Assembly (NCBI GenBank): GCA_010093995.1
Contig: ML992512.1
Location: 815,831 to 879,830 of the forward strand
Source: Elsinoe ampelina
Taxonomy: Eukaryota
Length of the DNA: 64,000 nt
Reading direction: 5' to 3'
The notes below the pieces were generated by a model, which made no database searches, was not told the DNA's origin, and was given only the letters and a program-made list of their open reading frames with translations. A program made the position numbers and the translations under genes. Positions 5,317 through 64,000 of the stretch are shown here, one piece after another (the first letter of the stretch is position 1; each line of letters begins with the position of its first letter).

Positions 5317-6282
5317 ATGGCACAATACACCTCCCCCTCTTCCACCACCCCCGAACCACCATCCATCACCCTCCCCGACGGTCGCAAACTCTCATACTTC
5401 ACCTTCGGCGTCACCCCCACCCCCACCGTCCCCTCCCCACCCACAATCCTCTACCTCCACTCCACGCCCTCCTCCGGCCTCGAAGCCTCCCACCTACACC
5501 CCCTCGCCCTCTCCCTCTCCCTCCGCATCATCGCCCCCAACCGCCCAGGCCTCTCCACCTCCACCCCACACCCCACCTCCACCCTCCCCACCACCATCTC
5601 CGACCTCTCCAACCTCATCTCCCTCATCTCCCTCCTCCACCTCCCCCCCCTCGCCCTCCTCGCAGCCCACTCCGGCGCCCCCTTCGCCCTCGGCCTCGCC
5701 ACCGCTCTCCCCCAGTCGCACATCCGCGGCCTCGCCGTGCTATCAGGGACGTACCCCCCTTCCCCCGCATCGGGCCAGAGAGGGACGCACTGGACTCCTT
5801 GGCTGGTGAAGAACCTATCCTACTACGCCCCCGCTCTCGTCCTGTCGGCGTTTGACGCCCAACTCGGCAGATTGGCGAGGGACACGGAGCGGCCGGAGCT
5901 GTTCCAGGAGGCGGTGCTGCGTCACATGGCCTCCCGTCCGGCATCTGATCTCGTCGCGATGCGGGACGGGGACATCAAGGCGGCGGTCGTCGAGGGGGCG
6001 AGGGAGGGTGTGAGATTTGGGTCTGGAGGGGCGATGAGGGAGGCCATGTTGCTTGGGATGGAGTGGGGGTTTCGGGTCGAGGATGTGCGGTTGGTCGGGA
6101 GGGTGTGGTTGTGCCATGGGAGGGAGGATGGGGAGACGAGTGTTGCGATGGCGGAGGGGGTGAAGGGGAGGATAGAGGGGGCGGTGTTGGAGGTTGTGGA
6201 GGGGGAGGCGGGGATTGGGGTTGTGTTGAAGAGGAGGGAGGTGGCGTTGGGGAAGTTGAAGGCGTGGTTGGAGGAGGGTTGA
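5317..6282 (+). CDS. Alpha/beta hydrolase fold protein (abhydrolase_1-like), catalytic motifs degenerate
   Basis: ITLPDGRKLSY, ILYLH, RIIAPNRPG, EWGFRVEDV and LCHGREDG are typical of the family. Intronless, 321 aa. Confidence 0.8.
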   Translation: MAQYTSPSSTTPEPPSITLPDGRKLSYFTFGVTPTPTVPSPPTILYLHSTPSSGLEASHLHPLALSLSLRIIAPNRPGLSTSTPHPTSTLPTTISDLSNLISLISLLHLPPLALLAAHSGAPFALGLATALPQSHIRGLAVLSGTYPPSPASGQRGTHWTPWLVKNLSYYAPALVLSAFDAQLGRLARDTERPELFQEAVLRHMASRPASDLVAMRDGDIKAAVVEGAREGVRFGSGGAMREAMLLGMEWGFRVEDVRLVGRVWLCHGREDGETSVAMAEGVKGRIEGAVLEVVEGEAGIGVVLKRREVALGKLKAWLEEG

Positions 6283-6492
6283 TGTGCTTGGGAGGGGTGG
6301 GGTCGGTGCTGCGTTGGTACGTGCCTTGGTTGTGAGAAAGCACATTGGAAGAAGCTTCATGATGGGTGTGAGTCTTCACAAAGATCTGCAGGCTCGGGGA
6401 AAGATGGAAATTAGATTTTGTGATTCATCTCTTGGCTACACTATCTCACCCCCTCCTCCCTCCCCCCACCTCACCCCTCCCATACTCACCGT

Positions 6493-8394
6493 CTACTTCC
6501 CCTTCCCAGTCGGAATCTGAAAGAAAACACCCTTCTTCCCCACCTCCTCCCCAACCCTCCCATCCACGCCCCCAATCCTCGCCCTGCCCTCCCCACCAAC
6601 AGGCTTATCACACCTAAAGAACCCCTTGCGATCAAACTGAATAATCTCATCCTCCCTCAATTTGCCCACATTCACATCAGCCCAACACCTCGTCCTCTTC
6701 TCCGTGTCCTTGTTCAAGAACGAATCGAAATCGTCGTCCTCCTCCAACTTATCCTTTGTCAGGAGGTAGTCGAAATCATACAGCAACACCTCGTGAAGTT
6801 CCTGGTCCTTGCTCAACCACGTGATCTTCTTCTTTGTCGTCTTGACGTCGCCCTCGAGGTGAAGGTCAAAGGACAGGGACGTGACGTGGTCCCCGGTCTT
6901 TTGGATGTTGCGCACGTACGCGTTGCCCCAGTTCATGAGGGTGATTTCCTCGCCGTCGGTGAAGGATTGGGCGTCCGCTTGGTCGACGATGACGCGGGAA
7001 GAGTACCATACCTCTTTTGAGCCGACGTCTTTGTTCTTGGCGTGCAGGTCCTTGGTCTCGCTTCGCGGGGCGTCGGTGTTGGGCCCTGTGACGGTGCACT
7101 CGACTGCGTTGTCGGCTTCGACGGCGGTGTAGCGGCCTGCGACGGGGTCGATGTATTTCTTGTTGGTGGCCCAGATGCTGGTCCAGTCCATGAGGGTGAT
7201 GGCTTTGCTGGGGCCTTGGCGGAGGATGAACTCCTGGAGGGCGGGAACGGTCATGCCTCGTCGACGGATGCCGCGGACGGTGGGGAAGCGAGGGTCGTCC
7301 CAGCCCCAGACGAGACCGGAGTCGACGACTTTGGTCAGCTTGCGTTTGGACAGGAAGGTGCGGATGAAGGACATGCGGGCGAAGTTCCAGTTGTAGACGT
7401 GGCGAAGGTCAAGGGCTTTGATGAACCATTGGTATTGAGCATCGCGGTCGTTATACTCTGTCGTGCGGAGGGCGTGAGTGACACCCTCATGGGCGTCAAT
7501 GAGAGGGCAAGCAAAGTCGTATGTCGGGTAGATCTTCCACCTGTCGCCAGTGCGGTGATGCTTCTCGGGGGAACAGCGGTAGATGACTGGGTCACGCATA
7601 GCTCCGTTGTTGTCCTTCATATCGATTTTGGCACGGATGTACCACTTCTGACCCTCTGGACTACCAGACTTCATCTCCTCAAAATGTGCGAGGTTGTCCT
7701 CGACACTGTCGTTACGGTGAGATGACTCAATCTTGGCCATGCGCTCCTCCCTAAGCTGCTCCTGAGGGGTGTTGTCCGCGTACGCTTTCCCGCGCTTGAT
7801 GATCTCCACACAAAAGTCATAGAGCTCCTGGAAGTAGTCGCTAGTATGTGTGACCTGGTCCGGTTGAATCCCCATGAGCTCAAGATCATACACAATGCTG
7901 TCCTCAAATTCCTGCTTCTCTTTCAAGGGGTTGGTGTCGTCGAATCGCAAGATCAGCTTGCCTTGATACTTCTTGTGCGCAAAGTAGTCGTTCAAAAGCG
8001 CCGCCTTTGCGTGACCGATGTGCAAGTATCCTGAGGGCTCTGGAGGGAACCGTGTGACCACTCCTTTCTCTGTGTCCTGTAGACCGATCTCGTAGTTTCC
8101 GCCATCGTCTACTGCTTTTGGTCGAGCAGTCTCCACCTCTGGCTTGATCGTCTCCTCGATGAAGCGGAACCACCTGCAGAGATTTGGTCGCAGGTTCTGC
8201 TTGATGTAGCTGTGCGCGATTCGATTGGTCCTGAGCGTCTTCCAGACTGTGAGGTCAGCGTCGGTCGGTGTGTAGCCAACAATGTAGGTGCGAAGGGTGA
8301 GGTGCGAGTCCAGCTCAGCAAGTGGCTTCTCGATCTCCTTGAGGTTGAGAGGTTTGAGCGCCTCGGCGCGGGTCTGCCACTCCTGGACTGACAT
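6493..8394 (-). CDS. GUS1: Cytoplasmic glutamyl-tRNA synthetase
   Basis: RFPPEPSGYLHIGHAKA (HIGH motif), LSKRKL, WGWDDPRFPTVRGIRRRG and an N-terminal GST-like region. Single exon, 633 aa. Confidence 0.96.
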   Translation of the reverse strand: MSVQEWQTRAEALKPLNLKEIEKPLAELDSHLTLRTYIVGYTPTDADLTVWKTLRTNRIAHSYIKQNLRPNLCRWFRFIEETIKPEVETARPKAVDDGGNYEIGLQDTEKGVVTRFPPEPSGYLHIGHAKAALLNDYFAHKKYQGKLILRFDDTNPLKEKQEFEDSIVYDLELMGIQPDQVTHTSDYFQELYDFCVEIIKRGKAYADNTPQEQLREERMAKIESSHRNDSVEDNLAHFEEMKSGSPEGQKWYIRAKIDMKDNNGAMRDPVIYRCSPEKHHRTGDRWKIYPTYDFACPLIDAHEGVTHALRTTEYNDRDAQYQWFIKALDLRHVYNWNFARMSFIRTFLSKRKLTKVVDSGLVWGWDDPRFPTVRGIRRRGMTVPALQEFILRQGPSKAITLMDWTSIWATNKKYIDPVAGRYTAVEADNAVECTVTGPNTDAPRSETKDLHAKNKDVGSKEVWYSSRVIVDQADAQSFTDGEEITLMNWGNAYVRNIQKTGDHVTSLSFDLHLEGDVKTTKKKITWLSKDQELHEVLLYDFDYLLTKDKLEEDDDFDSFLNKDTEKRTRCWADVNVGKLREDEIIQFDRKGFFRCDKPVGGEGRARIGGVDGRVGEEVGKKGVFFQIPTGKGK

Positions 8395-8813
8395 GTTGAT
8401 TGATAGTCAAGTCGAAGGTCAATTGCAGTGGAAAGGCAAGGAAATATCTAGTACGCAAGAGTCAGAATTTTGGATGATTCGAAAATTGCCCCACCAGTTC
8501 ACCGCAGCCCCTCTGTGTGCTCACCTACCAAGCAGCCGAATACACATCAAGAGTCACGGACTTCAATGACTGTGACCGGTGTTGGACCATGTGTCATCGT
8601 ACAAGTATGCTATCCTAGCGGCTCGATGTCTTCCTTTGAGACAAATCCGCAATGACCTAGTGCAAGTGTATGAAGCTGTTCTGAGCAACTGTCCCCCCAA
8701 ACACCTCGCTATGCAACATTCTATCCCTCCATGAGCCCTGATGCCCCTCCGACCTCTATTCCATGTTCCAATTCCCTCGTAAAGCCTCCATTCATGCATT
8801 CCCAGAACCTCCC

Positions 8814-11800
8814 CTACAACCACCCCATCCACAACCCCTCCGCAGCCCCCAAATTCCTCGGCTCCGCCGCCCTCGCCACCAAATCCAACACACTCTGACT
8901 CGCCGGCAGATTCCCCGCCTTGGGCTCCCCAGCAATAGCCAACGCCTTGTTGACAATCGCATCCGTATTCTTCTGCACATTCTCCCTCAGCTCGCCCTCG
9001 CGACTCGTCTGCCTGTGCTGCTGCGTGTACCAGAAACTCATCTCGTCGCGGACGAAGATGCTCAGGTGGCTTTCCAGATCGCTGCCGGCGGAGTCGTTGC
9101 CTGTGATGCTGCCCGGGTTGGGCGTGGGCATTGTGCTGCTTGTTGAGGTGGTCTCGGTCAGGCAGCGGGCGATGGCCATGAGGGCGCAGACGAAGATGCC
9201 TTCGGTGTGGATTGGACCCATGAGGGTCTGGAGGTTTGGCGTAAGGCGGAATGGCACGGCTTCTGGGTTGTGGAAGCGAGGCTGCTGGGCCGCCATGGCG
9301 GGGACGAGCTCCGAGCCCCAGATCTGTCCGGTGCCCCTGGAGATGTTCATCTTCGACGGATAGCGTGTTGTGATGAACATGGTAAAGGTGAGGAACGTCA
9401 ACGAGGCGAGCTGATGAGAGAACTGCCTGCGGAACAACCACAGCGCATCATAAGTAGGATAAATGGCCTTGAAGTAGTTGAGCACCACATCATGCGGGAC
9501 ATACTTCTCCTGAATGGCCGACAAAGTCTCGACCCGCACAGCTTGCATATGCTCTGGCTTGGCCTGCGATGTGTCAGTTTCTGCTACGACGGGTGAGCGT
9601 CGGGGACAGCGGACCTGGCCCGCCCCTCTCATCTTCTCAATCTGGAAGAGAATGGGCTCGTCCTTGTTTATGCCATTCCTGCGGCAGTAATCCTCATAGA
9701 TCCCTTGCAAGCTGATGTACGATGCGTCGTCCTGAAGCATGCGGAAGCTGGGAGAAAGTGGAACGATGATGGCGAGGTGGAATTGCAAGTTTCGTCGGCG
9801 AGATTCCTTCTTCTTGGCGAGAATGCTGTTGAAGATGCGGAAGAGTTGTACAATCCTTTCCTCTCTCCTGCTCAATCGCGGCGTCGGATGCTGAATGGCG
9901 AACGGATGAATGCTTCCGTCGTGTCCCCTAATCCTCAGTCTGCGATGGCAAGCAGTGACTCCCCTGACCAGATCAATCTCAGGCATGAATCGCTCGATGC
10001 GGACGAAATCCTGATTCTTGTCCTTATGCAGCAAATACTGGCCAGGAACCTCGACCTCATCAAACTTGTGATACCTGAATTCGGCAAGATGTGGTGCCAT
10101 CTTAAGGTGCATCTTCGACGTCCTGCGATCAAGTCTTTCTTCGAACCTGTCACGCCATTTGCGGAGCTTGCTGATGTAGTCGTGCATGGTCGGCTTGTTC
10201 TTGACAAAGTCTTCTTCGAACGCACTTCGAATGTGAGCTGGGAGCACACTGTCGGAAAACCGGGTGATGTTGGCCTCCGTAGAAGGTGGCAACTTGGCGC
10301 TCGGCTGGTAAGCATTGCTATATCTTCCGACGTAGGATAGTGCGTCGTTGAGAAGGGCCACAATTAGTCTGTAAGCATCTTCGTCCGGCTGACACTTGAA
10401 GTACTTCTGGATCTGATCGACCATGGTCTCCATCGACAATGCCAGCAGCGGGAACGCTGTCTTGAGGGTCTGCATAAGCTCCTCGGTGTGATCCCATGGT
10501 TTCTTTGGCTTTTCGGGTTGTGGTGGTTCAGATTTCTGATCCTCGCCTTCCTTGATCTCCTGCTTGGGTTGTGTCTCTCCATTCGTGGTACCGTTGGTCT
10601 GGGCCTGCTCTCCTGCGGCGCTCGATGGTCTGTTCTCACCATTTGCCGCGGCACTACCGGGCCTTGATGATGGCGAGCTCTGCTTGGCCTCCGAGCTCTC
10701 CCTCGCAGGCTTTGCCTTCTTCTCCCTCGCCTCTTTCATCTCCTGGCTACGCTTGATGGTCGTCATGTCCTCCCTGCTGGTACGCAACTGGAAGTACAAT
10801 GCTTGCGGGTATGTCTTTGCCAGCTTGCTGAGGATTGTGTGGGCGATTGTAGCTTCGCGCGGTGTCCTTGACAGGTTGTTGAGCAGCTGTGGAATGAAAG
10901 TAATCCAATACCAGACTGGTGTCTCCCCCTTGAATTGGTTCCAAGATTCTGCCAGCTTTCCTTCCGCGTCGTCCAAGCTGAGCAACCAAAGAATTCTGCT
11001 AAGCAGCTTCCTCGACTTGGCGCTCTTGTACTGACCTGCGGCTTCCAGGTAACAGCTGATGGCGTTGCTAGCTTTGTCAAGACTTTGCGGATCCTCCTTG
11101 AACAGATTGTCGTTGTATCGTCCCCACTCTGCCCAGGCTTTCGGCAGCTTGATGTCGAAAAAGAGCGCCGTTCCGAAGGCTTCATTCGCTTCGTCCTTGT
11201 GATTGAGCTTGGCAAGGAACATGCCTTTGAGGGTGTAGAACTCTGCCTTCTGCTGTGGTCCGAAGTAGTTGAGATTGGTATTGTTGATCACCTCCAGGCC
11301 ACTGCTGAGCTCTGACTTGTTTTGGTAGTGACATTTCGCTTGCTCGCGAAGCTTGAGGAAGGCTTCTTGGATCTCAATATTGGGAAGAGTATAGATGCGA
11401 CTGAGCTGATTGATGCACACTTCGGGCATTTGGTGCTTGCGTGCGACGTGGGCGAAGCGGTTGATGATCCAGGCAGTCTCATGATAGCCTCGATAGGCGT
11501 ATGATTGACCAGAAGCATTGCTTTGACCTGTCGGAATAAGCTGAAGGTACACGCCGTTGATTAGATGGAAGATGTGCTGTCTCCAGGTGACCAAGTCCTG
11601 CCAGGCGTTGATGTCGTCCCAGAAGTTCGGTAACCTCTCACGCCATGTGCTGAGCAGTAACTTGAGCTCTTGTGATTTGGCATCCAGGTTGGTGGCGTTT
11701 GTTTGAGCTAGACTGCCACAAATGACGCTGGCATCATGCAACTCCACAATTGATTGGAAGTTCTGCAGCAAGCTGATGTGGGATTTTGTGATGTTCTTGG

Positions 11801-20290: not shown

Positions 20291-21072
20291 GATGGCGGTA
20301 TTCGGACGTGAACCTCAAGTTTGAAATGTCACCAGAGCTCATCCATTCAATGAAGTATGTTGCGCAAGTTGGCGCGCCAGAAAATAGTGCTTCCAAAGGT
20401 ATATGCTGGGTGTCTATCAATCAGGGTTCCTGTGTGAGTCGCAAATGATTGTAGCTTGGAGAAAGTACCAGTGAGTTGGGCAGAGGTTTCGTAGAGGTCG
20501 AATTTGAATCGGAGAGGTGAATGCGCTCGTTAGGCGACAAGAATAGCTGGTGATTGCGCGTGGTATAGAGCTACAAGCAGCTACCGCATGCTTTTGAGTT
20601 GAGTTGATGCGCGAACTTCGTCGAGGGACAGCAGAAAAACGCGGAGAGGGCAGAACAGCGAATGTCTCGACTATTACAGCCGGCTGTGGCTGATCTAGTG
20701 TGAACTCAGATGGCCGGTGAGAAAGCCGATTCGACGAAAGAAGCACATTCCGAGCTAAGCTTTCTTCTGAGCTTAACGCCGACGGGGTTAAGTTGACCAT
20801 CACATGTCTTCACACGGACACTTGCACACCCCGATCTCGACTTTTCAGTGCTTACACGCTCGGTTGTCTCCTACAGCAGGTCTGAACGTCTTCAGCATGA
20901 TCTCAAGGAAATTTCTGAGATTCAGATCTCGACATTAGGTACATATAACAATGTCATGATAGAAACAGCCTCAGGAAAAATTCCTCTGCTTGTCACCAGG
21001 AGAAACCGATACGCAAATTACAAGCACTCATGTTTTGAACAGGTTGATGATTGGCGCTAACTGGGTATATGA

Positions 21073-22937
21073 TCACGCTTCCATGCTTTCGTCCTCTGCA
21101 GCAATCATGATCCCGGCTTTCCTCCTTCGCCTCTGTCTGGGGAGACCCAACTGCTCCATGCCGCCACGCATCTCTTCCCATCTATTCGTCAGATCGTTCG
21201 CTGAATCGATGACAGGATCGCCGTCTCCAACTCTGTCCAGTGCTCGTGCCAGCAGATCAGTCGCAATTGGATCCTGTGGACTGATCGCCAAAGCTTCATG
21301 CAACGCCTGTGTCGCATCCAACCACCTCTCCATCTCCATGAGCGTCATTCCTTTCGCAACAAATATCTGTGCGTCCGCAACTCCTGACCTCAGCACTTCT
21401 TCAAATTGCATCAAAGCCTCGTCATATCGCTCCGCCTTCCTGTAAGCATGGCCGAGATTCGCTCTTGTATGGAGCCACACCTCTTTTTTCCCGCCGGCTT
21501 CCTCCGCGCACTGTAATGCCAGCTCCAGGCAGCGTGCGGCAGCTGCATAGTCTTCCTCGTGGTAATACGCAACACCAAAATCGTTCAGGAGGAGTGGATC
21601 GGTCTCACACATTTCGTATGCTCGCTTGAAATAGCCAAGTGCTAATGCTGTATTGCCGAGACTCAAATTTTGCATGCCGAGGAATAGTTGGGGTAGATGT
21701 GTGCCTTGAAAGAGACGCGCTGCTGTACTGTATGCCGAGATGGCTTGATCATGCTCGCCTTCCGACGCGAAAGTATGAGCGAAGCCAATCCAGGCCGGAC
21801 CGAAGTGAGGATCCATAAGAGAAGCTTTGGAGAAGTAGGCTCGGGCCTGTGCGATTTGATTGATGGTCATGTAGTAAGTACCAACGGCCAGCCAAGCAGC
21901 TGGCTCTTCGGGATGTGTGTCTGCAAGATCGTGCGAGAGAAGGAACAGTGCATTGACCTCACCCAGTGCTTCCAGACAAGCAATGTGGACGGGTATTGCT
22001 TCGAAATTGTATGGGTCGGACTCCAGGATTGAGGTTGTCAGGGTAAGTGCGTGGCGGAAACGACAATTCGTGAAGAGAAGTTCTGCTTTTGCCAGCAGAA
22101 TACTTGGGTTATTGGCGAGGTTGTAGTGCGTAGAGAGTGTCTCCACTGCTGTGCTGAAGTCGTCTGGACGAGCGTACTTGGAGAGTCTAGTCATGTATAA
22201 CATCTTGGTGAAGTTCGCCGCCTCCTGATCCGGTTGCCCATCATCATTAGTGATGCTGTCAAAATCAAGTGATTCCAGAAACTCCCATTCCTCGCTCGGA
22301 GCCATGAGCTTATTACTCATCAGCTGATCGAACGCCTCGAAACACTGGACGTCGATCCGTACTGCGTCCTTGTAGCAAGTCTTCGCTCTGTCAATCGCAT
22401 TCTGCTTTGCGTAGCAAAGTCCCCTGAGGTAGCACATTGCGGCCTCGAACTTGATGTCCTCAATGCTTTCATTGTCGCGGTCTTCGCTTCGGTCAACCCG
22501 ATCGGTTCGCACTGGTGCCTTGCCAGACATTATGGCGCCATTCCTAGTCTCGACGTGCTGCAATTTACGCCGCACACGATCCACTGAGCTGAACAGATGT
22601 GAGGGATTCCTTTCGCCCAGAGTGTTCAGCGCCTCATCAAATCGTTGTTGCTTCACATGGCAGTGCGCCGCCAGATATTTGCACGCGGGATTCCGTGAAA
22701 TCAGATCCTGTCTGGCCAAGAATCCAAGTGCCCTGGTGTAGTTGCCTGTGTTGAAATGTACTTGCGCCAACCAGAAAGCATCCTTGTCGTCATCTAGCCA
22801 GGTCAGCGAAAGTACAATCTCTAGTACTGACGAGACACACTCGTCAATGCTAACAGCTTGTCTCCAATGAAAATAGCCGAGTCGTATTGATGCTTGTTCA
22901 GAGCATCTTGTCGCCAGTTGCGTAAAAACTGCTCCAT
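21073..22937 (-). CDS. CDC16: Anaphase-promoting complex subunit Cdc16/Cut9 (APC6, TPR repeats); intron 22794-22840
   Basis: Spliced N-terminus MEQFLRNWRQDALNKHQYDSAIFIGDKLLALTNDDKDAFWLAQ. TPR motifs such as FGPAWIGFAHTFASEGEHDQAISAYSTAARLFQGTHLPQLFLGM. Confidence 0.93.
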
Positions 22938-23232
22938 TGAGATGAAAAGAAAAGGCTCGTGGAGCTGGTTTGATTGCCGAAATATCCAACACCCAACACC
23001 TCGCTAATGCTCAAACACTAAATTATTCTTCGTTACCACATCAAATCGTAGAATGTTCATTGTTGATAGTGTTGCGACTGGTAAAAACATTAATCGTGGG
23101 GGGAGTCGCACCCGCGGCTGATGCGGCTCTGCACCCCGCGACGAAGCCCGAGTCAGCGTTGAACTTCTCAATCTCGGCGGTCTTTCAACTTCACTCCACC
23201 ACAACAATTTCCTCAGTCTCTACACCGCCAAC

Positions 23233-24059
23233 ATGTCAGAACGCAAGGTCCTTCCAAATACTATCCGCCGGACTTCGATCCGTCAAAGATCGTTCGTGTC
23301 AAAGGCGCGAAACCCGTCGGTCCCAAACTCCAGACTGTCCGCCTCATGGCTCCATTCAGCATGAAATGCACATCCTGCGGCGAATACATCTACAAAGGGA
23401 GGAAGTTCAACGCGCGCAAGGAAACCACCGACCTGAAGTACTACAATATCACCATCTACCGCTTCTACATCAAGTGCACACGATGCTTGGGGGAGATCAC
23501 CTTCAAGACCGATCCGAAGAACATGGATTACGAGTGCGAGAAAGGCGCGAAGCGGAACTTCGAGCCATGGAGGGAGGCGAAGTTGGCCGAGGAGACAGAA
23601 GAGGAACGGCTGGATCGGTTGGAGAAGGAGGAGCAGGAGAGGGATGCGATGAAGGAGTTGGAGCAGAAGACGGTGGACGCGAAGACGGAGATGCAGATCG
23701 CGGACGCGCTGGATGAGATCAGGATGCGGAACGCGAGGAATGAGAGAGCGGGCAAGGACGCAGAGGTTGTGGTCAAGGATGTGGTGGATGAAGACAGGGA
23801 GAGACAGGAGAGGGAGGATGAGGAGGCGGCGAGGAAGGCGTTCACGGCTGCGACGGGGGAGAGGGTAAAGAGGCTGATAGAGGAGGACAGGGATGAGACG
23901 AGAGCGTTGATGGGTGCGGGATCGTCGTCGAGTGCGAGTGCTTCCAGTACCGCGACGGCGAACCCTGCGGTACCTGCGCCAACATTCCAGAGGACTGTCA
24001 AGAAGAAGAAGGATTTTAAAGCGGCACTTGGGATCAAGAAGAAGCCGTCGCTGGTCTAG
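23233..24059 (+). CDS. YJU2: Splicing factor Yju2/Cwc16 (CCDC94); apparent 1-nt frameshift at ~23253-23256
   Basis: MSERKVL at 23233 is followed, one base out of frame, by KYYPPDFDPSKI...VRLMAPFSMKCTSCGEYIYKGRKFNARKE...IKCTRC...FKTDPKNMDY. Confidence 0.9.
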
Positions 24060-40840: not shown

Positions 40841-40873
40841 GTTGGTTGGTTGGTTGATGGGTTGGTGGGTTGG
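40841..40873. repeat. Imperfect (GGTT)n / (AACC)n microsatellite in the 5' leader of the secreted Gly-rich gene
   Basis: gttggttggttggttgatgggttggtgggttgg. Confidence 0.6.
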
Positions 40874-43137: not shown

Positions 43138-46100
43138 TCACGCACCGGGCCCACCACCCCTGATTCTCTTTCCATCACCTTGCTCCCCTCCCTCAAGTGG
43201 CCTCTTTGCTCCTTGAGGAGCTGCCTGCCCCGCTGACGGTGCTGTCCCCGGGGTAAATTGCTTAGCTCCAGCATTGAGCGGGCTGCCTGGTCCTCCTCCA
43301 CGTCCGCCTCTTGTAGCGGCGCCTCTGAAGCCGCCTCTTGGAATCCCGCCACCTCGAGTGGCCAATCCTGGTAGACCAGAGCCCGGCTGTGCTGCACCAC
43401 CAGGAGCAGCGATACCGCTCGGCTGGCCAAAGTTGCCTCTTCCACGTCCTGCTGCTAATCCAGCTCGTGGGAGCATTGTTCCGCCTGCGCGTGGGATGCC
43501 TCCACCCCTGGTGGCTGGGGCGAAAGCTGGCTTGGTATCCATATTGCTCGAAGCGTCCACTGCGGGAGCCGCTGCCTCTGTGGCACTCGGCCCTGTCGTG
43601 CCGTTGACTGCTTGAGTCGTAGTTGTGCTTGCGACAGTCGTTGTGGTGGCAGACGGTGCTCCGAAGCTTGGTTTGCCAAAGGATCCGCCAGTCGTGGGAA
43701 CAGCTGACGGCGCTCCAAAGCGCGCTTGGCGTGCTGCTAGTCGAGACTGTTCGTCCTCGGTAGGTGGTGCTGCTGTATCCTCGAGTTTTGGAGCAGCAGT
43801 CGATGACGCCTGGGTCACTAACGGCTGACTCGCAGTTGTGTTGACTGTTGCAACATTTGCGGCGGCGGCTGGTGCAGAGGTCGCTGTGGCGGCTGCACCT
43901 GGGGCTGTTGGTTTTGGTGCGGGTGGCGGTTTGGCAACTTTGGCGATCTCCCAGACTTCACCGACAGGTCTCTCAGGAGTCTCCTTTGCGGCGGTCTCGA
44001 CGATCTCGACCTTTGCATTCGCAGCTCGAGCTCTACCTTCTGCCATGCTCAGTTTCACCCTCTGCTTCGACGCTTCCATCGTGACGGCTTTCGCGACGGC
44101 CTGCTCCTGCGCTGACTTGACTGCTTCTTCCTTTTCAGCAGACGTCGTTTCCGCGGCGGCTTTGGCGGTCTCCGCAGCCTCGTCCTTCTCCTTGATGATC
44201 TTCTCATACTCATCTTTGACGCGCTTGCCCTCCTGCTCGACCTTGGCGGTGATGTTGCGCTTGAGTATGCTGCGAATGATTTCGTTCTTGGCGATGAGCT
44301 CTCTCGCTTGTTGATCCGTAATGTTGAGTACAGACTCTGAAGCAGGAGTCGGCGTCGATGCGGTCGCAGTCTCGTTGATAGTCGGCTTCGATGGTGTAGC
44401 TGGCGCGGCGGCTGCGGCACTTGCTTTGGCTTTCTCCACTGCCTCGGCGCCCTCGCGTGTGACCCTCTCCACGATGGCATTGTGCTCCTCCTTGAGCCGG
44501 AGTGTCTCGTCCTGGTGAGCCTGACGCAGCTTTTGAAGCTCTTCGGAATGCTCGGTGATGAGTGCCTGTCGTACTTCTTCTTCGACAGACTGCTTGACCT
44601 TCTGTCGTTCTTCACGCAGTTTGTTGTTGAGCGTCTCTTTCATCTTGGTTGTGCGGTTGAGGTAGGTCTGCTCTAGCTGCTGCTTGCTGAGTTCGTGCTG
44701 ATGTTCCAGCTCGGATCTAAGCTGAGCGACCTGCGCTTGAACTTGCGATGCGACCTCCTCGGTGGACATGGCGGGCGTAGTCGTATTGGAGGTCAAATCG
44801 GGAACTGGCACTGCTTGTGTCTCGGTCGCATCTGCCGAAGCCGCGTTTGCGCGAAGGCTTTCGAGCTCCTGCTGTGTTGTCTCGAGTTGTTGCAGCAGAT
44901 TTTGTACTTCTTCAGGTGATGTGCCACCGTTGTTGGGATCTTTGACTTGGGAGGAAGTGACTTCGAGTGAGTTTTGAAGTTCAATCTGACAAGTCAGCAA
45001 ATTGTGAATCACCAGGTCCTTGTCAATACTCACTACCTGCTGCTCAAGAGCCTGGATCCGCTCGGTCTGCTCTTGAATTGTCGCTTGCAATGTTTGCACT
45101 TGTGCTTCTAGCTCGGCGGCGCGAGTGGATGCCTCCGCGGCATTAGATTCAGCACTCTGAGCTCTCATCTCCAGATCACTGAGATTGTGTTTGTTGGTTT
45201 CGGCGACTTCCCCGTCTTCGACCTGACCTTCCTCGACGGCGGCCGCGTTGCTAGATCCATCAGCTTGCGCAGCAGCTTGTTGAGAAGCCTCTTGAGTCGC
45301 GACCGCGGCATCTCGCTCTGTTCTGGCTTCTTCCAAGCTTTGTTGAGATTGCAGTAGGTCTTGCTCCAACTTCTCCTTCTCGGCTCGGACTGCAGCGAGA
45401 TCCTGATTGGCGACAACAATCTTCGCGTTCTGTTCACGGGATCTATTCTTGGCCTGCTCGATGAACTTTGCCTTTTGCTCTTGCCATGTCTTGTCTGCGT
45501 CATCCTTGATCTGTTGCAATTGTGCTGGGAACCCCTCCATTTGTTGTTGCAGATCTTGAATCGTGGTCTGGAGTTGGTCTCTTTCAGTCTCGAGCTCCGA
45601 GATGCGCGACTTCATTGCTTCGATTTCAGCAGGGTCGACACGGTCGTACTTGGAGATGATGTTCTGAGTGCGTTCTCGCCATCTATCGCGGTCTTCTTGC
45701 AACAGCCTCAGCTCACCATTCTTCATTTCGAGCTCACTCTCCAGCTCCTGAATCTTTGACTGCAAGGGCAAGACCTCGGAAGTCAAATCCTCAACCTCCT
45801 TGATCCTCTCCTGCAGTCTTGATTGTGCTTGGCGGGCCTCTTGACGTAGAGTAGCGCTGCTTTCACGATAGAGATTGAGCTCGTTGATTGTTTCGAGAAG
45901 TTTGTTGTGGCTGGCAGCACCGGTCTCCTGGTTGGTACGTTCGCGGCGTTCCTCACTCAGCTTTGCTCGGGTGTCATCGAGTTGCGACTGCGTGTAATCC
46001 AGCTGCTGTTTCAAGCGCTTTGACTCCTGTACAGCAAGCTCGTACTGAACGTCGATTATTTCCTTCTCTCGGCGCAGATAGGAAACGACTTCTTGCAACT

Positions 46101-49100
46101 TGCTGTCGATGGATTGCGTGCCAGTGGTCTCTTCGTCATCATTGGGCAGTGCACGATGCTGCTGAAGAGTCGAGATCTGACTGCTGACCGATTCAAGTTG
46201 TTCATGCAGAAGCTTGTTCTGTGATTTGAGATCATCACGACTGTTGCCCAGCTCTGTAAGCTCTTTCTCGTAACGATCCTTCATTTCCGACCAGTTCTCC
46301 TGTCCTTGAATCAAGCTTGCTTTGGCAGCCTCGGCTTCTGCTCTGATACCGGCAACTTCTGTTCGGAGTGTGTTGTACTCGGAACGTACGCCTTGTAGGT
46401 TGCGGGCAGCGTCGGCATGCTTCACCAGCTCATCCTCGTAACTCTGCTGAGCTTGCTGAGCAATCTCAGCTTGTGCTTTCAAGTCCGCCTGATGTAGCTT
46501 GGCCTTCTCGGTTTGGCGTTCGCATTCGTCGCGGAGGCGAGCGACTTCACTCTCGAGCGCTGTCTTCTGCTCTTCCAAGAGCATGCCACTCTGTTCATGC
46601 TGGGTTCGCGATTCTGACAGCTCAGCATTGGTGGTCGAGAGCTCTGTGCTCAAGTCCTGGATGCGCTGCTCCATTTGTTGTATTGCACCTTCCTTCTCTT
46701 CAAGCTGTCGATCCATATCTTCCTTGTACTGGTCGTTGGTCTCATTGAAGCTTTGAAGCTCCTCTTCTGCAGACTGGCTAATGGCTTTGTATTGCTCGAC
46801 CTGTGCTCGGGCATTCTCCAACTCGGCCCGGGTGAGGTCCAGGTCGCGCTTCAGGTCAGCCACCTCGATGCCTAGTTCCTGCTCCTTCGAAAGCGCGCCG
46901 TCAGCAATAGACCCGTCTTGATTGTCGTTGGTCGGAGCGAGGGGGCCGCCTGAACTAGGACGCGGCTGTAATGCTTGAGCCCGTTCTTCGGCATTTCGAA
47001 GGTCGATCTTCATCTCATCAACTCTGACTTGGAGCTGGTCTCTTGTTGTCTTGGCCGCGACGAGCTCCTCCCTGACATTCGAAAGACTCTTGACAAGATC
47101 GTCAATTCTCGTCTTCGATTGATCCTGCTCGTACTCGCGCCGCATATGAGCTTTCTTGCTCTCCTCTGCTTCCAGGTCGAGCTTCTTGCGCACGGAGCTG
47201 AGCTCACTCTCCAGGCCTTCGATCCTGGACTGTGTCCGCCTCCTGTTCTCAGAGTCGGTCTGCTCACGTTCGTTTTGCAGGTTCTGTAGATCCGAAAGCA
47301 TCTTGTTGAGTCGTGAACGCTCGTCCATTAGTAGACGATTGTCTTCCGACATACGTGTTTCGATCTTCTTCCACAGCTCTCGTTCCGCTTTCAAGTTGGC
47401 CGTCTCGGCTCTCATGCTGTCAGCAAGCGCTTTGGCATCCATCAGCTCCTCTGCCACCTGTTGCGTTCGCAGATCTTGCTTGGCTGCGCTCTCGTTGAGA
47501 GCCTGAGCGCGTTTTTGCAGTTCGCCGTTTTCTGATTGAAGCATCTTATAGTTTGCTTGAACCATGTCGTAGCGCTCCTGAGCAAGTGAGATCTGGCCAC
47601 TGCTCCTAGCAAGCTCGCTCTGTAGATCACTCTTCTCCTTCGCTAATTGGTCGACTTGCTTGCGCAGGATGTCTCTGTCGGTTGATAGCTCTTGGCGTGT
47701 GGTGTCAAGGTGCATCTGCATCTCTTTGACGAGCTTGACGTGGTCGGCTAGTTGTTTAGAAATGCCTTCCGGGTCTTCTTGTGGTGCTCTGCTGGCCCGA
47801 AGTGGTGTTCGAGGAATGCCGTCTCCATTGATTGACTGACCAAACATGCTTTCGACATCGGCATTGCCAGGAATAGGTCCACGACTGGCAAGCATTCGTC
47901 GGAACATGTCTCGTTCCCTGGTGATGCTCTGCGCTTGTGTAGTGAGAGATCGAACCTCGTCGTCGTGTTGCTGAACGCGTTGACGAAGATCTTCGAGTTC
48001 CCGTTCTCGGTCGGCCTGCTCGACCTCACGAGCTTTGGCTTCCTCACCTTCCATGCGCTCGGCAAGTCCGCGGTTCAACTTGAGGAGTTGTGTGTTCTGC
48101 TCTTGGAGTTCCGCCACGTTGCGGAAAAGTAGAAGTCGTTGCGTGATGAAAGAACCAGCAGAGGTCTGGTTGCTGATCGATTCTTCGTCAAGTTCTCCTG
48201 CAGCAAGCATCTGTAACTGTGCCTGTCCAGCGGCATCCAGGCCGTCCAGTCCCTGTTCACGAGCTTGCATTTCAACCAGCAGGATCTTGATCTGTGCACT
48301 GAGATCTCGTAATTGCTGCCTCAGAACATCGCCTTCTTTCGACAGGCCAGCGATTTGGCCTTCTTTGCTCCTTGCTTCTTGAAGAACTTTATCCCTCTCC
48401 GCAAGTGCAGCGTCCAGAAGAGATGACATCTCGACCACTTCTGCCTCTATCCGCTCCTTATCTTGTCGTAGATCTTCTTGTTCTGGTCCACGAGTTTCAA
48501 GGTCCTGGATCATCTGGTCGAGTTCGTTGGATAGCTCGGTTGTGCGGCGGCGTTCGTTCTCCAGATCAGCACGTAATTGAACATTCTCGCTGTACAGTTG
48601 TGTGAAGTTGAGATTCCCCTTCGATCGAATCGTGCCTGGCGTGAAAGGCGCAGGAGAATTGCCACGGATCGGTGTCATGGCCATCATGCCATTGGAGCTT
48701 CTTATGGGTGTCCCTGGCACCGAGGCCTGTTGTTGACGGGCTTGGGCATTCTGTAGACGTTCCACCTCAGTCTCAAGCTCCTGCAGTTTGCTCTCGAGCG
48801 CCTCTTTCTCGCTTTGCTCAGTCTCGATCTCAGCTTGCAATTGCCCGATCTCCTCTGCCGCCGCGTCCTTGATTTGTTCGAGATTGCTCGTGAGTTCTTG
48901 TAATCGTGCTCGTGCAGTGTCCGCGCTCTGCTTCTGGAGATCTGCCAGACGTCGTGCACTTTCGAGTTCGACTTTGAAGGCAGATTCGGATTCAATGGCA
49001 GACTCCTGGAGCTTTTGTATTTTTGCAAATGCGTCCTCGGCCTTTTGCGACACTTCGTCCAACCGTTGTCGTAGCGCGACCTCAGTCCTTTTACATGCTT

Positions 49101-49899
49101 CAATTGTACTGTTGGCATCCTCATTGGCACGCTGCAGCTCGGCAATGCGGGCGTTTTTCTCCTTGCGAAATTTGGTCTGTTCGTCGGATCTGGTCTTGAG
49201 CTCTTGTTCATGCCATTCCACGTTGCGCTTTAAAAGTTCTAGCTCCTGGACGAATCCTTGCTCCTTGAATTTCGCTGTCGATGCCGCATTCTCCAGAGAC
49301 TGGTTCTTGTCCTCGAAATTGGAGACTTCGCGTCGAAGGACCAGTATCTTCTGGTGCTGCTCTGCGAGCTCTTCCGCAAGCTTGTCATGTGCTGTAGACT
49401 TGTTCTCCAGGACGGAAAGCGTCTCTCGATTCGATGACTCCAGACTGGTGATGCGTGCTTGAAGAGTTTCTACAATTGTCGATGAATCGCTGGTGCTAGA
49501 TTTGGCACGATCAATCTCTGATTGAAGCTCGGAGCGAGTGTTCTCTATTTGATCTCAGCAATTAGCACAAATTTGGAGATGCACAAATGTACCTAAAGTG
49601 TTGACAGTCTTCCTCAAAGTCTCCACTTCTTTCTGCGACTTGCTCAATGAGGCCTTTACGGCCTTCGACTTCGCTTCATTGTTGCGAACCGTGTTCTCGA
49701 GTTCGACATCAGCTCGCAGCTTCTCGGCTTTGGCTTCGTCAAACTCTTGCGCTTTTACGGTGAATGTTGCGAGCAGATCTCTCACGAGGTCTGCTGTGGG
49801 CGCGTCTAGCACTGTTTGTAGCTTCTCCTCCTCGATCGCAAAAGATGAAGCGATTACTGCAGTCTCGACGAGAGTGCCTGCCTGCCCACGGGTCCTCAT
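43138..49899 (-). CDS. MLP1: Nuclear basket coiled-coil nucleoporin Mlp1/Tpr; introns 49545-49592 and 44986-45033
   Basis: Coiled coil of more than 2100 aa with AQQSYEDELVKHADAA, LRREKEIIDVQYEL, LNLYRESSATLR and QNIISKYDRVDPAE, plus an RGG-rich tail. The 5' exon splices in frame. Confidence 0.9.
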
Positions 49900-58152: not shown

Positions 58153-58778
58153 AGTGATGTGCGGCACACTTGCTGGAATAATGATTGAGGTACATGTATG
58201 TATACTTGCAAAGTCATGTTTATAGAAATGATGTAGCTTTTTCGATCAGCGCAGGCCATAGCTTCTGGCTTCCCCAGAAATTTCCCCACGCGTGAAACTT
58301 TTCCAAGTGAGGAGAAGTTGCCCACAATTGGTATCGGGTCCTGTGAACCACGTGAACGGCAATGAGCTTGAGGACATTGGAGCATGCAATCGGGTAGACG
58401 TTTCAGTTCTATGTGCATAGGATACCTCTACTGGGGAAAGACTCAGACAAGCTGCGGACACACGGCATGTTGGTCCCATCAATATGCATCGAGGGACAAG
58501 ACGGCGTCGGGGATTCTTCCCAAAGAGGCAATTCCGCAATGCTCTGACGATGCATTTCAAAAGCCGACGACATTTTTCTGGAGCTCATTGATGAGATTGA
58601 CTGCATGAGCGGGTGAGGTAGCTCTGCACAGGATACAATATCTGAACACTTGCTAGAGTATTTCCATCTCTTCCTTGCCATCTGACGTTTCAATCATTTT
58701 TCAACACGTCTGCAGCTGATCTCCGGAACATTCTCACCACATCCCCTGAACTCGCCAACACTCTCATCCGCCGGAACC

Positions 58779-59920
58779 ATGACCCAGGGCGGAGTTCGCA
58801 AGCTGCAAGTAGCCATCGCAGGCCTCGGCCGCATGGGCGCTCGCCATGCTCTCCACTTCCTCGAACGCGTCCCCCGCGCCCAACTCGTCGCCGCCTTCAC
58901 GCCCGACGCCAACGAGCGTGCCTGGGCCGCCACCCGGCTAGCTCCCTGGGGCGTCAAGCTCTACGACGACTACGACGAGATGCTCAAGCACTCCGGCCTC
59001 GAAGCCGTCGTGGTGGCGACCGTCACCACCGTCCACGCCGAACAAGCCATCAAAGCCATCGAGGCCGGCCTGCACGTCCTCTGCGAAAAACCCCTCTCCA
59101 CATCCATCGAGCTCGTAAGCCACCTGCCCCTCCCCCTCCGCCTCCTCAGTCTTCCCACCCCGCTGACCTCCCTCCCCAGTCCCAATCCGTAGTCACCGCC
59201 GCCCGCCGCCGGCCCCAACAAAAAGTCCTCTGCGGCTTCTCCCGCCGCTTCGACGCCTCGTACCGGGACGCCTTCGCCCGCACCTCGGACGGACACATCG
59301 GCCGCCCCTCGGTCTTCCGCAGCCAAACATGCGACAAACTCGACCCGTCGGGCTTCTTCGTGGCCTACGCCGCTTTCTCGGGCGGCATCTTCGTCGACTG
59401 CTCCATCCACGACATCGACCTGGCACTGTGGTTCTTCGGCCCGGAATCGAGGGTCAAGTCCGTGTCCGCGGTGGGCATCACGGCCGTCCAGCCCGGGCTG
59501 AGGCAGCACGGGGACGTGGACAACGCCGTGGGCATAGTCGAGTTTTGGGAGGGGAGGATCGCGTATTTTTACGCGAGCAGGATGATGGCCGCCGGCCAGC
59601 ACGACATGACGGAGATTATCGGCACCGAGGGCAAGATCACGGTGAATGCGAATCCGCAGACGAATCTGGTGGAGCTGTCCGAGGCGACGGGCGTCAGGAG
59701 GGAGATCCCCCCTGATTACTACGGGAGGTTCGGCGAGGCGTTCGTCACCGAGGCGAATGAGTTTACGGCCGCGTGTTTGGATGGGACGGAGTTGCCGTTC
59801 AAGTTGTCGGGCGCGGTCAGGGCGGTGCAGATTGGTGTGGCGTTGCAGGAGAGTCTGAGGAGTGGGACCAAGATTTTCTTTGATGAGACGGGGAAGAGGG
59901 TGGAGCAGGCCAAGTTGTAG
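58779..59920 (+). CDS. Gfo/Idh/MocA oxidoreductase (inositol 2-dehydrogenase-like); intron 59115-59179
   Basis: AGLGRMG, HVLCEKP, CGFSRRFD and SGGIFVDCSIHDID. Confidence 0.9.
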
Positions 59921-60016
59921 TAGAGATAAAATGTCACGGTAGATATAGAGACTTGGCAAGTGTATGGATTGGGTATTGATGTCATGTCTTCATGTCTTCC
60001 TTTCGAGCTGTCCTTG

Positions 60017-60898
60017 CTACCGGCTTTCCGACTCGCTTATCACCAGTCGTTGTGCCAGTCGTCTCGAGAACTCGTCCTCTATTGCTTCCCTCTGCACTTG
60101 GTCGTATCCCGGCGGTGGCTCGTCTGGTGGTGTGAAGATCTGTTGCTCGTCTCTGCTCTGAACCCCGGTTGTGTTGCCTCCGCTAGCTGTCCCGTTGGCT
60201 TGCGCGGCTTGAGCCAGCTCGCCGGCCGGCTGTACTCCAGCGGCAGGAACTTGGACATGAGCCCCGGGCACTTGTCTGGCCTCTTCGTACCGGGGTAGAT
60301 CTTCTAGCACCACCTCGACTCCTTCCATCACGCCTGGTCCTCTGCCTCTTCCTTGTTCTACCCCGCCTTCTGTGCCGAGACCTTGTCCTCTTTCCCTCGC
60401 CATCTCCACAGCCTGAACTACCCGTTCTCGGACCCTCTCGTATCGTGTCTGGAAGTCATATGCGCCTCCGTCCTTGAATGTGACCTTTACTTCCAACGGC
60501 TGGTTTGGTAGGTTTCCGCCTTGTACGGGTTTGACCACTGCCGACCAGACATTCGGGCCTATCCATGGTGCAGATACATGCGAGTCTTGTAGATTTAGTA
60601 GAGGTGATGAGAAGGACTGCAACTGAGGTGTCGGGGACGAGGGGAGGTAGATGACTCTTTTGCTTGTGAGATACAGGACGCCCATCGACGAGGAGACTGT
60701 GAAAGGTTGCTGAGCAGGGAATTTGCCCACTGTGCCGACTGAGAAAGACGTCCGTGTGGGAGAGGCGTAGACAGTCTGTTCGCCTGGCAGAGGAAGGAAG
60801 GGTTGAGAAGGGGAGGGGCTCGGTGGGAGCATGACCCAACTGACTGATGTTAGCGGATGATCCGGTGCGAGTACGGGATGGACCTGCTTGATAGACAT
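60017..60898 (-). CDS. WW-domain-binding protein 2-like (PH-GRAM domain plus PY motifs); probable GC-AG intron 60840-60887
   Basis: Spliced MSINWVML, PFLPLPGE, LYLTSKRVIY, APWIGPNVW, FKDGGAYDF, LPRY and PPPGY. Confidence 0.85.
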   Translation of the reverse strand: MSIKQVHPVLAPDHPLTSVSWVMLPPSPSPSQPFLPLPGEQTVYASPTRTSFSVGTVGKFPAQQPFTVSSSMGVLYLTSKRVIYLPSSPTPQLQSFSSPLLNLQDSHVSAPWIGPNVWSAVVKPVQGGNLPNQPLEVKVTFKDGGAYDFQTRYERVRERVVQAVEMARERGQGLGTEGGVEQGRGRGPGVMEGVEVVLEDLPRYEEARQVPGAHVQVPAAGVQPAGELAQAAQANGTASGGNTTGVQSRDEQQIFTPPDEPPPGYDQVQREAIEDEFSRRLAQRLVISESESR

Positions 60899-61724
60899 GA
60901 TGGGTGACGGAGGGCACTTGGCCCGAAAAGATGAGTGGAAAGCTCAGAGACGAGATGGTGTATTGCTTCGCAAGGTGGTGGTTGAGGGAGCCTGTGCGGC
61001 TTGCGACGGGCGATGCTCTGCGATGTTCCGGGAGCCTTGTTCGAATGCGATGTGGTTTTACAGTGGAGGACAGTCTCTGTTATCGCAGTGTAGGTCTCGC
61101 AGAAGAGGAAATGGTATGTAGCCTGAACTCGTGTGTAACCCCAGAAAGCTTGAAGAAGTCGAGCTTGTGATTGAATGATCTGTCACTGGTCAAAGCCAAA
61201 TTGCAAATCAAATGAACCTAGAGTCAAAGAACTCGCGAGAACAAAAAGTCGTCATCGACCCGCGGCAATGCCAAGAGCGTAAGGTCTTCATCCTCGAGTA
61301 GCCGACGACGTGGTTTTGCAACTTCGACTATGCATGTTATATACACTCTCAAGGTCGTTGCTGATAACAAAAGCCAAAGAATACTACCTCAAGCGTGGTT
61401 CTCTGTGCTGCTGTTGGGTACAAATGCATAGAGGAAACACGGCGATAGGGCTTCGGCAATTGAAGGTGGAGCGGCATCTTGCCCCGCTGTGGCCTTGCTT
61501 TGTCCGCAAGAGTCAAGGACATGCAAAGCTCGAGGGCTCCTGTCTTCTGACAACCATCTTTCGTTCTGATGCTGACCATCGTGTAATTCAGCATGTCAGT
61601 AACCCCAACCAACGACCTGCAGAAGCCAAGCTCAAATGATCGTCGTTCATGGCAGATCGTCCACGAGGCTGATCCCCTCGGTCTCGGAATGAGGGGTGAC
61701 GGCCAAGGCCAACCTTTTGCTCGA

Positions 61725-63351: not shown

Positions 63352-63500
63352 GATCAAGTACTGTAATTCAGTATCAGAATGAATGTACGAATATTTGTCA
63401 AGCGACCTAATCTGCACAAAGGTCGAATGCTTTTCAGACATTAAAAATATGAATCCAACCCATCAGCGCCATCATCCCCTCGCGCTTTTGATCCCCAAAT

Positions 63501-64000
63501 CTACGCCTCATCCGTGCTATTGAAATAATGATTCACAACCGGCACCTTGGTATTGCTCCCATACGCACTCCCTCCATAATCCAAATACCCACTCGTATAC
63601 GGCGTACTCGGGAACTTTGCCTTCAACTCCTTCGCCGACCCAAACACCCAAACGGTATTCATCCCTTGCTGCAACAACACGTCAGTCACATTTCCCTCCT
63701 CTCAATCTCATCATGTACTACTACTCACCACCGCATGCGCCGCAATATGACAATGCGCCATCCAAGCCCCGACATTCTGCTTGGTAACCCTCACCCTCCA
63801 CGCCCGCCACCCCATGGTCACATTCGCCCTGCTCGACAGCCCATCGTCCGTGTACCTGTACAAAACCGTCGTGTCCCTCCTCGCGGGCACGTACCCGGCA
63901 TTGACCAACTTCCTCTCGTTCCTGACGGCATTGTACGACCCGTTGCCGCTCCCGAGGTCGTAGACGTGTTCGCCGTGCATGTGCATCGGGTGCGAGTCAA
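63501..64000 (-). CDS. Multicopper oxidase (ascorbate-oxidase-like, AA1), 3' part only; intron 63669-63728
   Basis: Copper motifs HPMHMHG and spliced GAWMAHCHIAAHAVQGM (Met at the axial position). The gene runs off the window end. Confidence 0.85.

Follow-up and report, generated by a model that had tools for sequence, protein, structure and literature searches.

Gene-anchored C-to-G skew islands in Elsinoe ampelina as probable intense cases of fungal gene-polar GC skew

We analysed a 64,000-nt stretch of the Elsinoe ampelina genome (GenBank assembly GCA_010093995.1, contig ML992512.1, positions 815,831 to 879,830; hereafter the window, numbered from its first letter) that carries a series of skew islands. 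An island, or unit, is a C-rich arm followed by a G-rich arm on the + strand. Units measure about 1 kb and single arms about 450–550 bp, each arm ending 450–600 bp from the switch. The window has a G+C content of 53.4%. Pfam identifies most of its open reading frames (ORFs), among them GUS1, YJU2, COG2, a GH31 enzyme, a GFO/IDH/MocA oxidoreductase, a DEAD-box helicase, PRP9, VMA1 and TFA2. TRA1 and MLP1 lay outside the Pfam scan; their names, and that of MER3, whose ORFs match DEAD helicase and Sec63 domains, are taken from an earlier description made from the letters alone (the original prediction). Elsinoe-annotated proteins match the hydrolase and COG2 products, with 87–91% identity to E. 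batatas, and the COG2 product is 100% identical to the COG2 annotated as E. ampelina, which places the DNA in a Dothideomycete of the family Elsinoaceae. The genes on which the islands lie include the following.

5317-6282, + strand: alpha/beta-hydrolase coding sequence (CDS), recognisable by eye and with a full-length alignment with orthologs
6493-8406, - strand: GUS1 (Glu-tRNA synthetase)
8814, - strand: stop of TRA1
21073-23010, - strand: TPR/APC3-like gene
27613-28584, - strand: COG2
28519-28569, - strand: COG2 intron, GT..AG, 51 nt, inside the sense C arm
32313-34445, + strand: GH31 alpha-xylosidase CDS, 2.1 kb
40136-40936, + strand: short ORF without a Pfam family
41752-43011, + strand: ORF without a Pfam family
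58646-59920, + strand: GFO/IDH/MocA oxidoreductase
60017-60943, - strand: Gly-rich ORF
63492 onward, + strand: ORF cut by the window end

Calling arms in 200-bp windows at an absolute GC skew of at least 0.45, together with a 400-bp profile, returned six full C-then-G units and six weaker or partial ones.

5200-6449, full: island 1; C arm 5200-5808, switch near 5865, G arm 5906-6449; spans the entire hydrolase CDS
6360-7400, weaker: island 2; strong C arm 6360-6794, switch near 6850, weak G arm to 7400; 3' untranslated region (UTR) and last third of GUS1
8626-9400, weaker: island 3; C arm 8626-9025, switch near 9060, weak G arm; last ~200 codons of TRA1 and the gap to GUS1
Near 21000-22200, weaker: an extra weak unit absent from the original prediction; 3' end of the TPR/APC3-like gene (- strand)
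23000-23979, weaker: island 4; weak C part, strong purine-rich G arm 23489-23979; in YJU2 (+ strand)
27681-28749, full: island 5, the strongest; C arm 27681-28288, switch 28242, G arm 28222-28749; over COG2 (- strand)
32085-33332, full: island 6; C arm 32085-32449, switch near 32600-32780, G arm 32773-33332; first half of the GH31 CDS
40051-41089, full: island 7; over the short no-Pfam ORF 40136-40936 (+ strand)
41810-42830, full: island 8; switch near 42410; over the no-Pfam ORF 41752-43011 (+ strand)
58989-60013, full: island 9; over the oxidoreductase (+ strand)
60000-61000, weaker: over the Gly-rich ORF (- strand)
63434-64000, partial: C arm of a unit cut by the window end; ORF 63492 onward (+ strand)

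After merging, the window holds 19 strong arms forming six C-then-G pairs and one G-then-C pair; the latter, near 6420, is the junction between neighbouring islands 1 and 2. All ten C-to-G spans of the original prediction match called units, the second, third, fourth and seventh each with one weak arm.

Arms come close to excluding one base. In the two strongest islands, 50-bp bins hold 0–2 G among 30–33 C and then 1–5 C among 27–35 G. Read in the sense direction, third-position skew across the hydrolase runs −0.95, −0.30, +0.65, with G+C at third codon positions (GC3) of 0.80–0.86. COG2 runs from −0.68 to +0.82, and at four-fold degenerate sites from −0.75 in its N part to +0.69 in its middle. 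GH31, where the C arm of island 6 comprises the upstream region and the first 45 codons, gives −0.60, −0.68, −0.06, +0.18, +0.76, +0.83, +0.87 and +0.59 in successive 40-codon bins and then about 0 (a separate computation put the extremes at −0.66 and +0.81). At 3' ends, GUS1 stands at −0.36 to −0.71 over codons 280–520 and then at +0.25 and +0.54; the last 40 codons of TRA1 reach +0.94, and the two bins ending 40 codons earlier read −0.42 and −0.59. The TPR gene switches at sense nucleotide 1423 of 1935. An RNA-like contig covers 41752-43081, which places the island 8 switch at the centre of the contig. Midpoints peak at a G+C of 0.66–0.74, as had been described, but the CpG richness noted with it is no excess over composition: CpG observed/expected is about 1 (range 0.77–1.35), midpoints are CpG-rich because they are GC-rich, and a CpG-island reading was discarded.

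At silent sites, one strong base (G or C) on one strand replaces all other bases, and the favoured strand changes along the unit. Pooled sense-strand four-fold sites are 69% C, 10% G, 12% A and 9% T in seven C arms (n = 576), 69% G, 14% C, 6% A and 11% T in eight G arms (n = 436), and 33% C, 22% G, 20.5% A and 24.5% T in the background (n = 3652). The flip from C to G occurs in all eight four-fold codon families, which rules out a codon-family artefact; alanine codons go from 73% C and 4% G in C arms to 9% C and 73% G in G arms. AT skew at these sites is weak, with A over T in C arms and T over A in G arms. GC3 reaches 0.8–0.9 in arms versus 0.5–0.65 elsewhere. UTRs and other non-coding parts of arms are skewed as well, less strongly. 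The COG2 intron, the only one within an arm, holds 32 C (63%) and 5 G (10%), and six introns outside islands are 17–26% C; the COG2 exon join agrees with the start of the annotated ortholog, MSKFY/LPSS. Synonymous sites, UTRs and introns had all been named in the original prediction, and each bears it out, the introns through this single case. With amino-acid composition shifted too, these data support what it had proposed, a strand-asymmetric substitution process at the DNA level strong enough to rewrite coding DNA.

Chance controls separate the size of the switches from their order. Shuffling bases in 2-kb blocks gave a mean of 0.06 switches at D ≥ 0.5 and a maximum of 1 in 100 shuffles, against 11 observed. 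Shuffling 400-bp blocks, which addresses arm order only, averaged 3.5 C-to-G switches at D ≥ 0.7 and reached at most 7 in 200 shuffles; 7 were observed, so that by this control alone the C-to-G ordering lies at the upper edge of chance and not beyond it. When synonymous codons were permuted within genes, 0 of 200 permutations reached the switch in nine island genes (hydrolase, GUS1, TRA1, TPR, YJU2, COG2, GH31, unk419 and IDH), the outcome on which the original prediction had staked itself. Five of 200 reached that of the Gly-rich ORF. None reached the much smaller switches (0.25–0.40) of VMA1a, VMA1b and TFA2, and between 21 and 188 of 200 reached those of DEAD, PRP9, SDR, AKR, MLP1, NST, both MER3 pieces and TrAA12. 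Recoding with the general codon usage of the window keeps part of the switch, and amino-acid composition therefore carries skew too.

Repeats, mobile DNA and palindromes do not account for the islands. Compared with itself, the window gave one match besides identity, 151 nt shared by two C arms at 70%. Inverted matches between arms, as a quasi-palindrome or template-switch origin would leave, are many-to-many, out of register and 71–78% complementary; a few short ones (14–20 nt, 80–93% complementary) amount to low-complexity complementarity, with no in-register palindrome.

Some local features stand beside these results. At 28031-28037, in the COG2 C arm, a contig from the same organism (about half the summed depth) carries 6- and 3-letter insertions that look like an in-frame length variant of a low-complexity C-rich stretch. 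Many contigs from all four runs end or diverge at 27872-27913, a short CT-rich stretch that behaves in assemblies like a dispersed low-complexity repeat. A T-rich stretch at 2340-3000, with AT skew down to −0.49 and a G arm at 2633-2945, is a candidate further weak unit, beyond the span of the original prediction, with a switch near 2515 (D = 0.59); it lies in an unnamed ORF (- strand) whose sole match is a sub-threshold CMIP6.

The islands are anchored to genes. In the sense direction, third-position skew is negative over the first 100 codons in 19 of 22 ORFs and positive over the last 100 in 16 of 22. The 400 bp to the left of intergenic regions have G over C in 20 of 23 cases and the 400 bp to the right C over G in 21 of 23, and these signs hold for tandem, convergent and divergent gene pairs alike. 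Every unit adjoins an intergenic region. Seven cover a whole short gene (hydrolase, YJU2, COG2, the two no-family ORFs, the oxidoreductase and the Gly-rich ORF), one sits on the first kilobase of GH31, and three sit on the last kilobase of GUS1, TRA1 and the TPR gene. The original prediction had read the constant polarity on both gene strands as independence from genes and had described islands that ignore gene limits. The polarity is indeed constant, but a gene-polar C-then-G pattern is its own reverse complement and so reads C-then-G on the + strand for either gene strand. The islands keep to gene ends, and their polarity is what position within the transcription unit would predict, an outcome that the original prediction had itself named as a refutation; point sources of mutation placed without regard to genes, as had been proposed, do not fit.

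Long genes show the ends of this pattern without the whole. In the skew profile of the window no unit falls inside the interiors of TRA1, MLP1 or MER3, in line with the earlier remark that long flanking genes are compositionally ordinary. Among window ORFs of at least 300 codons, the end-minus-start difference in four-fold skew is positive in 13 of 15, with a mean of 0.42. Mid-gene skew in long genes is intermediate and flat, the exception being the GH31 G arm at codons 160–320. Long ORFs have a C-biased four-fold baseline in their bodies, and only the last ~40 codons turn G-biased; this baseline thus supplies part of the C arm that precedes the G arm at 3' ends. The MLP1 ORF (- strand, 43800-49500) carries a long even AT skew of −0.3 to −0.43 without GC skew, which fits an A-rich coiled-coil coding strand and is an asymmetry of another kind than the islands.

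Gene anchoring bears directly on the suggestion that the midpoints are bidirectional replication origins, with the arms as leading- and lagging-strand mutational asymmetry. The C-to-G polarity is the one associated with skew jumps at origins. The arms, though, stop after ~500 bp and do not run over a replicon; the 64 kb hold ~11 units, close to one for each gene and always at gene ends; and distant fungi repeat the COG2 switch, as described below. No shared motif was visible within ±150 bp of the midpoints on inspection by eye. To our knowledge, an absolute skew of 0.5–0.9 is far above any eukaryotic replication skew. We regard origins as almost certainly the wrong explanation.

The COG2 switch recurs in other fungi. 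Scanning metagenome contigs with a COG2 alignment gave 80 loci from relatives of 38–54% identity, which we take to be ascomycetes. A comparison over all third positions was positive in 80 of 80 but is confounded, since Glu, Lys and Gln codons end only in A or G. We repeated it at four-fold sites only, dropping loci with a duplicate matched protein segment or fewer than 12 four-fold sites in the N part, which left 69 of the 80. In 58 of these 69 the middle stands above the N part in skew, by more than 0.5 in 42 and by more than 1 in 12 (means −0.37 in the N part and +0.21 in the middle); 11 show no rise. COG2 of the window (−0.75, +0.69) ranks at the top, and L035, L037 and L067 are about equally strong. 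The same switch at the same place in so many contigs again speaks against sources placed independently of genes. In three loci (L039, L070 and L047) COG2 has a GC3 of 0.82–0.98 and almost no skew switch; GC3 alone therefore does not make the pattern.

Beyond COG2, the same contigs suggest a widespread phenomenon. We counted arms in loci of at least 3 kb after removal of near-duplicates (43 of 66 kept), with COG2 and 400 bp on either side masked, over 336 kb in all. This yielded 117 strong arms, or 34.8 per 100 kb versus 29.7 in the window, with 19 C-to-G pairs and 11 G-to-C pairs. Metagenome ORFs of at least 300 codons have a positive end-minus-start four-fold difference in 61 of 94 (mean 0.16). 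Other short ORFs in these loci carry units of the same kind; two unrelated ones next to COG2 (L025:3831-4640 and L064:7651-8523) switch at third positions from −0.8 to +0.5 or +0.7, and long ORFs beside COG2 are flat. Taken together, the skew is widespread, with the window at its strong end.

Skew strength is a local, gene-specific property, and the skew reaches protein composition both in the window and in relatives. The hydrolase has an amino-acid skew gradient of −0.55 to +0.57 in the window and the same in E. batatas; E. fawcettii (−0.47 to +0.28) and Sphaceloma murrayae (−0.30 to +0.16) show a shallower one. The hydrolase product has no Pfam match at E ≤ 0.001. No Pfam family is on record for it or its E. 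batatas ortholog, and the orthologs from E. fawcettii and Sphaceloma carry PF12697 and PF00561. From these comparisons, a composition drive seems to have eroded the family signature of the hydrolase. The amino-acid-level shift of GH31 is confined to the window and E. batatas, and identity to Sphaceloma is lowest, at 50–64%, over residues 100–200. GH31 is also short in this group, at 705–710 aa in the window, E. batatas and Sphaceloma compared with 750–790 aa in other fungi, its C-terminal ~60 residues being either absent or behind an unannotated intron. COG2 has a similar amino-acid gradient across Dothideomycetes. Sister-species contigs on the flanks of islands differ by 8–11%; at a likeness of at least 80%, none was found on 39676-41204 or on parts of 41619-42694. 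On the branch of the window, the few amino-acid changes that allowed polarisation run in mixed directions.

We put at roughly 0.85 the probability that the islands are unusually intense single-gene cases of fungal gene-polar GC skew. That reading takes in the pattern, its neutrality, its gene anchoring and its recurrence in other fungi, all observed here. In skew of this kind the sense strand is rich in C for roughly the opening 500 nt of the transcription unit and turns G-rich as the 3' end nears; in ~1-kb genes the two arms touch and look like a C-to-G island, and in longer genes a unit lies at one end. As to cause, we infer a link to transcription. Anchoring to gene ends and recurrence at COG2 across lineages fit a property of the transcription unit, and the candidate we tentatively favour, at somewhat short of even odds, is a neutral, DNA-level, strand-asymmetric substitution bias coupled to that unit. 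Damage or repair would differ between the strands and change sign along the unit, so that sequence drifts toward C in the 5' arm and toward G in the 3' arm, the strong base being favoured on one strand only. Its strength would be set gene by gene, and it would persist long enough to drag amino-acid composition along. Identity with gene-polar skew and this mechanism, taken as a whole, are about an even bet.

Several observations weigh against this account. In GH31 the G arm (160 codons at +0.6 to +0.9) spans nucleotides 460–1020 of a CDS 2.1 kb long, well short of the 3' end. The two arms of a gene are correlated in strength (r = 0.59, p = 0.003), but arms on either side of an intergenic region are not (r = 0.16); this looks more like local paired units than two independent end effects; among 10 longer genes no positive correlation was found. 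The rise of GC3 to 0.8–0.9 in arms is not what ordinary transcription-associated mutation would predict. AKR, DEAD, MLP1, MER3 and NST do not exceed their permutations, and the switch of VMA1 is small. At codon positions 1 and 2, inherited protein composition accounts for part of the skew, as the COG2 gradient across Dothideomycetes indicates. Finally, we know of no mechanism that reverses a strand bias along a transcription unit.

A rival account takes the islands for recombination-initiation sites anchored to genes, with strand-asymmetric repair of heteroduplex. A break would form near the midpoint, and either 3' overhang would retain or acquire C at the expense of G, perhaps because mismatches carrying C on the invading strand (C/C, C/A, C/T) would be corrected less well than those carrying G. 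Such a process would leave a C-rich left arm and a G-rich right arm about a GC-rich centre without skew. Yeast is known to repair C/C mismatches poorly. The symmetric structure with its G+C peak of 0.66–0.74 at the midpoint (a local GC and GC3 peak ~1–2 kb wide), the replacement of three bases by one strong base at four-fold sites, the GC3 of 0.8–0.9, arms of ~450–550 bp, shared strength of paired arms and presence or absence gene by gene all agree with it. So do the eroded family signatures and the fast divergence of some islands, with no sister-species contig matching 39676-41204 or parts of 41619-42694 at 80% likeness or more, between flanks that differ by 8–11%. In Zymoseptoria, another Dothideomycete, exonic hotspots are reported (PMC5844332), and bacterial GRINS pair intense skews with gene conversion (PMC8256042). 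Yet to produce the COG2 switch seen in 58 of 69 highly diverged fungi, hotspots would have to stay put in a single gene over very long times, and in Zymoseptoria hotspots show little conservation, with GC-biased conversion reported as weak or absent (PMC5844332). Hotspots free to lie anywhere do not predict that every unit adjoins an intergenic region, and the amino-acid changes on the branch of the window, few of them polarisable, are mixed in direction. Hotspots had been offered in the original prediction as sources independent of genes; that form finds no backing, and the gene-anchored form is possible but unlikely. Slightly more doubtful is the specific version in which the paired arms reflect strand-asymmetric biased gene conversion around initiation sites fixed a few hundred base pairs inside gene ends.

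Selection on the transcription unit or pre-mRNA offers another route to gene polarity. A G-poor start and a C-poor end may control elongation, R-loops or termination, in the spirit of limitation by cytidine triphosphate (CTP) or of G-rich 3' ends that promote R-loops; an adaptive hypothesis of the former kind is set out by McLean & Tirosh (PMC3315797). Selection would be expected to hold a synonymous-site pattern in place within one ortholog through many lineages, and the coverage of UTRs and an intron corresponds to pre-mRNA. G-runs of the G-quadruplex type are found on whichever strand leads away from the midpoint, which would also suit it. Many genes lack the pattern, however, recognisable protein families are degraded, and the COG2 switch is absent in 11 of 69 lineages. 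The hydrolase mRNA is predicted to fold into a single giant 5'-3' hairpin (−480 kcal/mol versus −444 ± 10 in 20 shuffles; z = −3.75), which should hinder rather than help expression and which follows from the composition. We consider selection quite unlikely, behind the gene-anchored hotspot account. Gene-polar skew, with a neutral bias coupled to the transcription unit as its tentative cause, remains the reading we prefer.

The consequences reach beyond one window. A neutral process writes stretches of 400–500 bp in working genes nearly without G and then nearly without C, and its composition drive changes proteins enough to hide a family, as in the hydrolase. Such skew can mislead analyses of codon usage, selection and phylogeny in these fungi, and C-to-G switches of this size in fungi are not to be taken as origins. 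Single genes such as COG2, with the pattern at full strength in many lineages, provide a compact and comparable locus for tests of mutation, conversion and selection. Were the conversion reading true, the long-unexplained 5'-C/3'-G skew of fungi would itself be a recombination footprint, and skew switches would give a sequence-only map of long-lived hotspots and of heteroduplex-repair polarity across fungi.

Skews of several kinds resemble the islands in part. GC skew near transcription start sites has reportedly been treated in related work on plants and fungi (PMC555766). With the skew switches at origins, in bacteria and in mammalian skew domains, the islands share the change of sign from C over G to G over C along the strand, but they extend over hundreds of base pairs and not tens to hundreds of kilobases, and they differ also in amplitude, density and gene anchoring. 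The transcription-linked skew of mammals is closer in that sense 3' ends are G-rich and the switch is tied to transcription units; in the mammalian case (2013, PMC3787257), however, a G-rich 5' end reportedly goes with a switch at the transcription start site itself, whereas the genes studied here begin C-rich and switch 300–800 nt farther in. Bacterial GRINS (2021, PMC8256042) likewise place intense local skews in functional coding DNA, strongest at third positions, with a usage shift between Gly/Val/Trp and Pro/Thr/His and a suspected conversion-type process. Unlike the islands, which are unique sequence and whose AT skew is weak though of matching sign at four-fold sites, GRINS are duplicated by definition (>80% identical to another region), show GC skew correlated with TA skew, and have no link to gene ends.

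The nearest relative is the skew described by McLean & Tirosh in 2011 (BMC Genomics, PMC3315797). In our literature searches we found no paper on skew in Elsinoe and no description of discrete, near-total skew units like the islands. McLean & Tirosh report a sense-strand C bias at the 5' end and G bias at the 3' end in most of 64 fungal species; the species list takes in filamentous ascomycetes and the Dothideomycetes Pyrenophora and Stagonospora. In their data the polarity marks four-fold sites and amino-acid usage and extends to promoters and UTRs, while expression is tied to it very weakly at most; they offer mutational and adaptive (CTP-limitation) hypotheses, settling neither. The islands share the 5' C and 3' G bias and its presence in four-fold sites, promoters or UTRs and amino-acid usage, as well as the slight involvement of AT skew and the large differences between species and genes. 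They differ in degree and form. Against the modest all-gene averages given there, single genes here nearly exclude G and then C over 400–500 bp each; the arms pair into ~1-kb units with raised GC3, and the G arm of GH31 lies far from the 3' end. The kind of skew is thus already in print, and its intensity per gene is unusual; going beyond what that text reports, the same unit is demonstrated here at one ortholog in many lineages.

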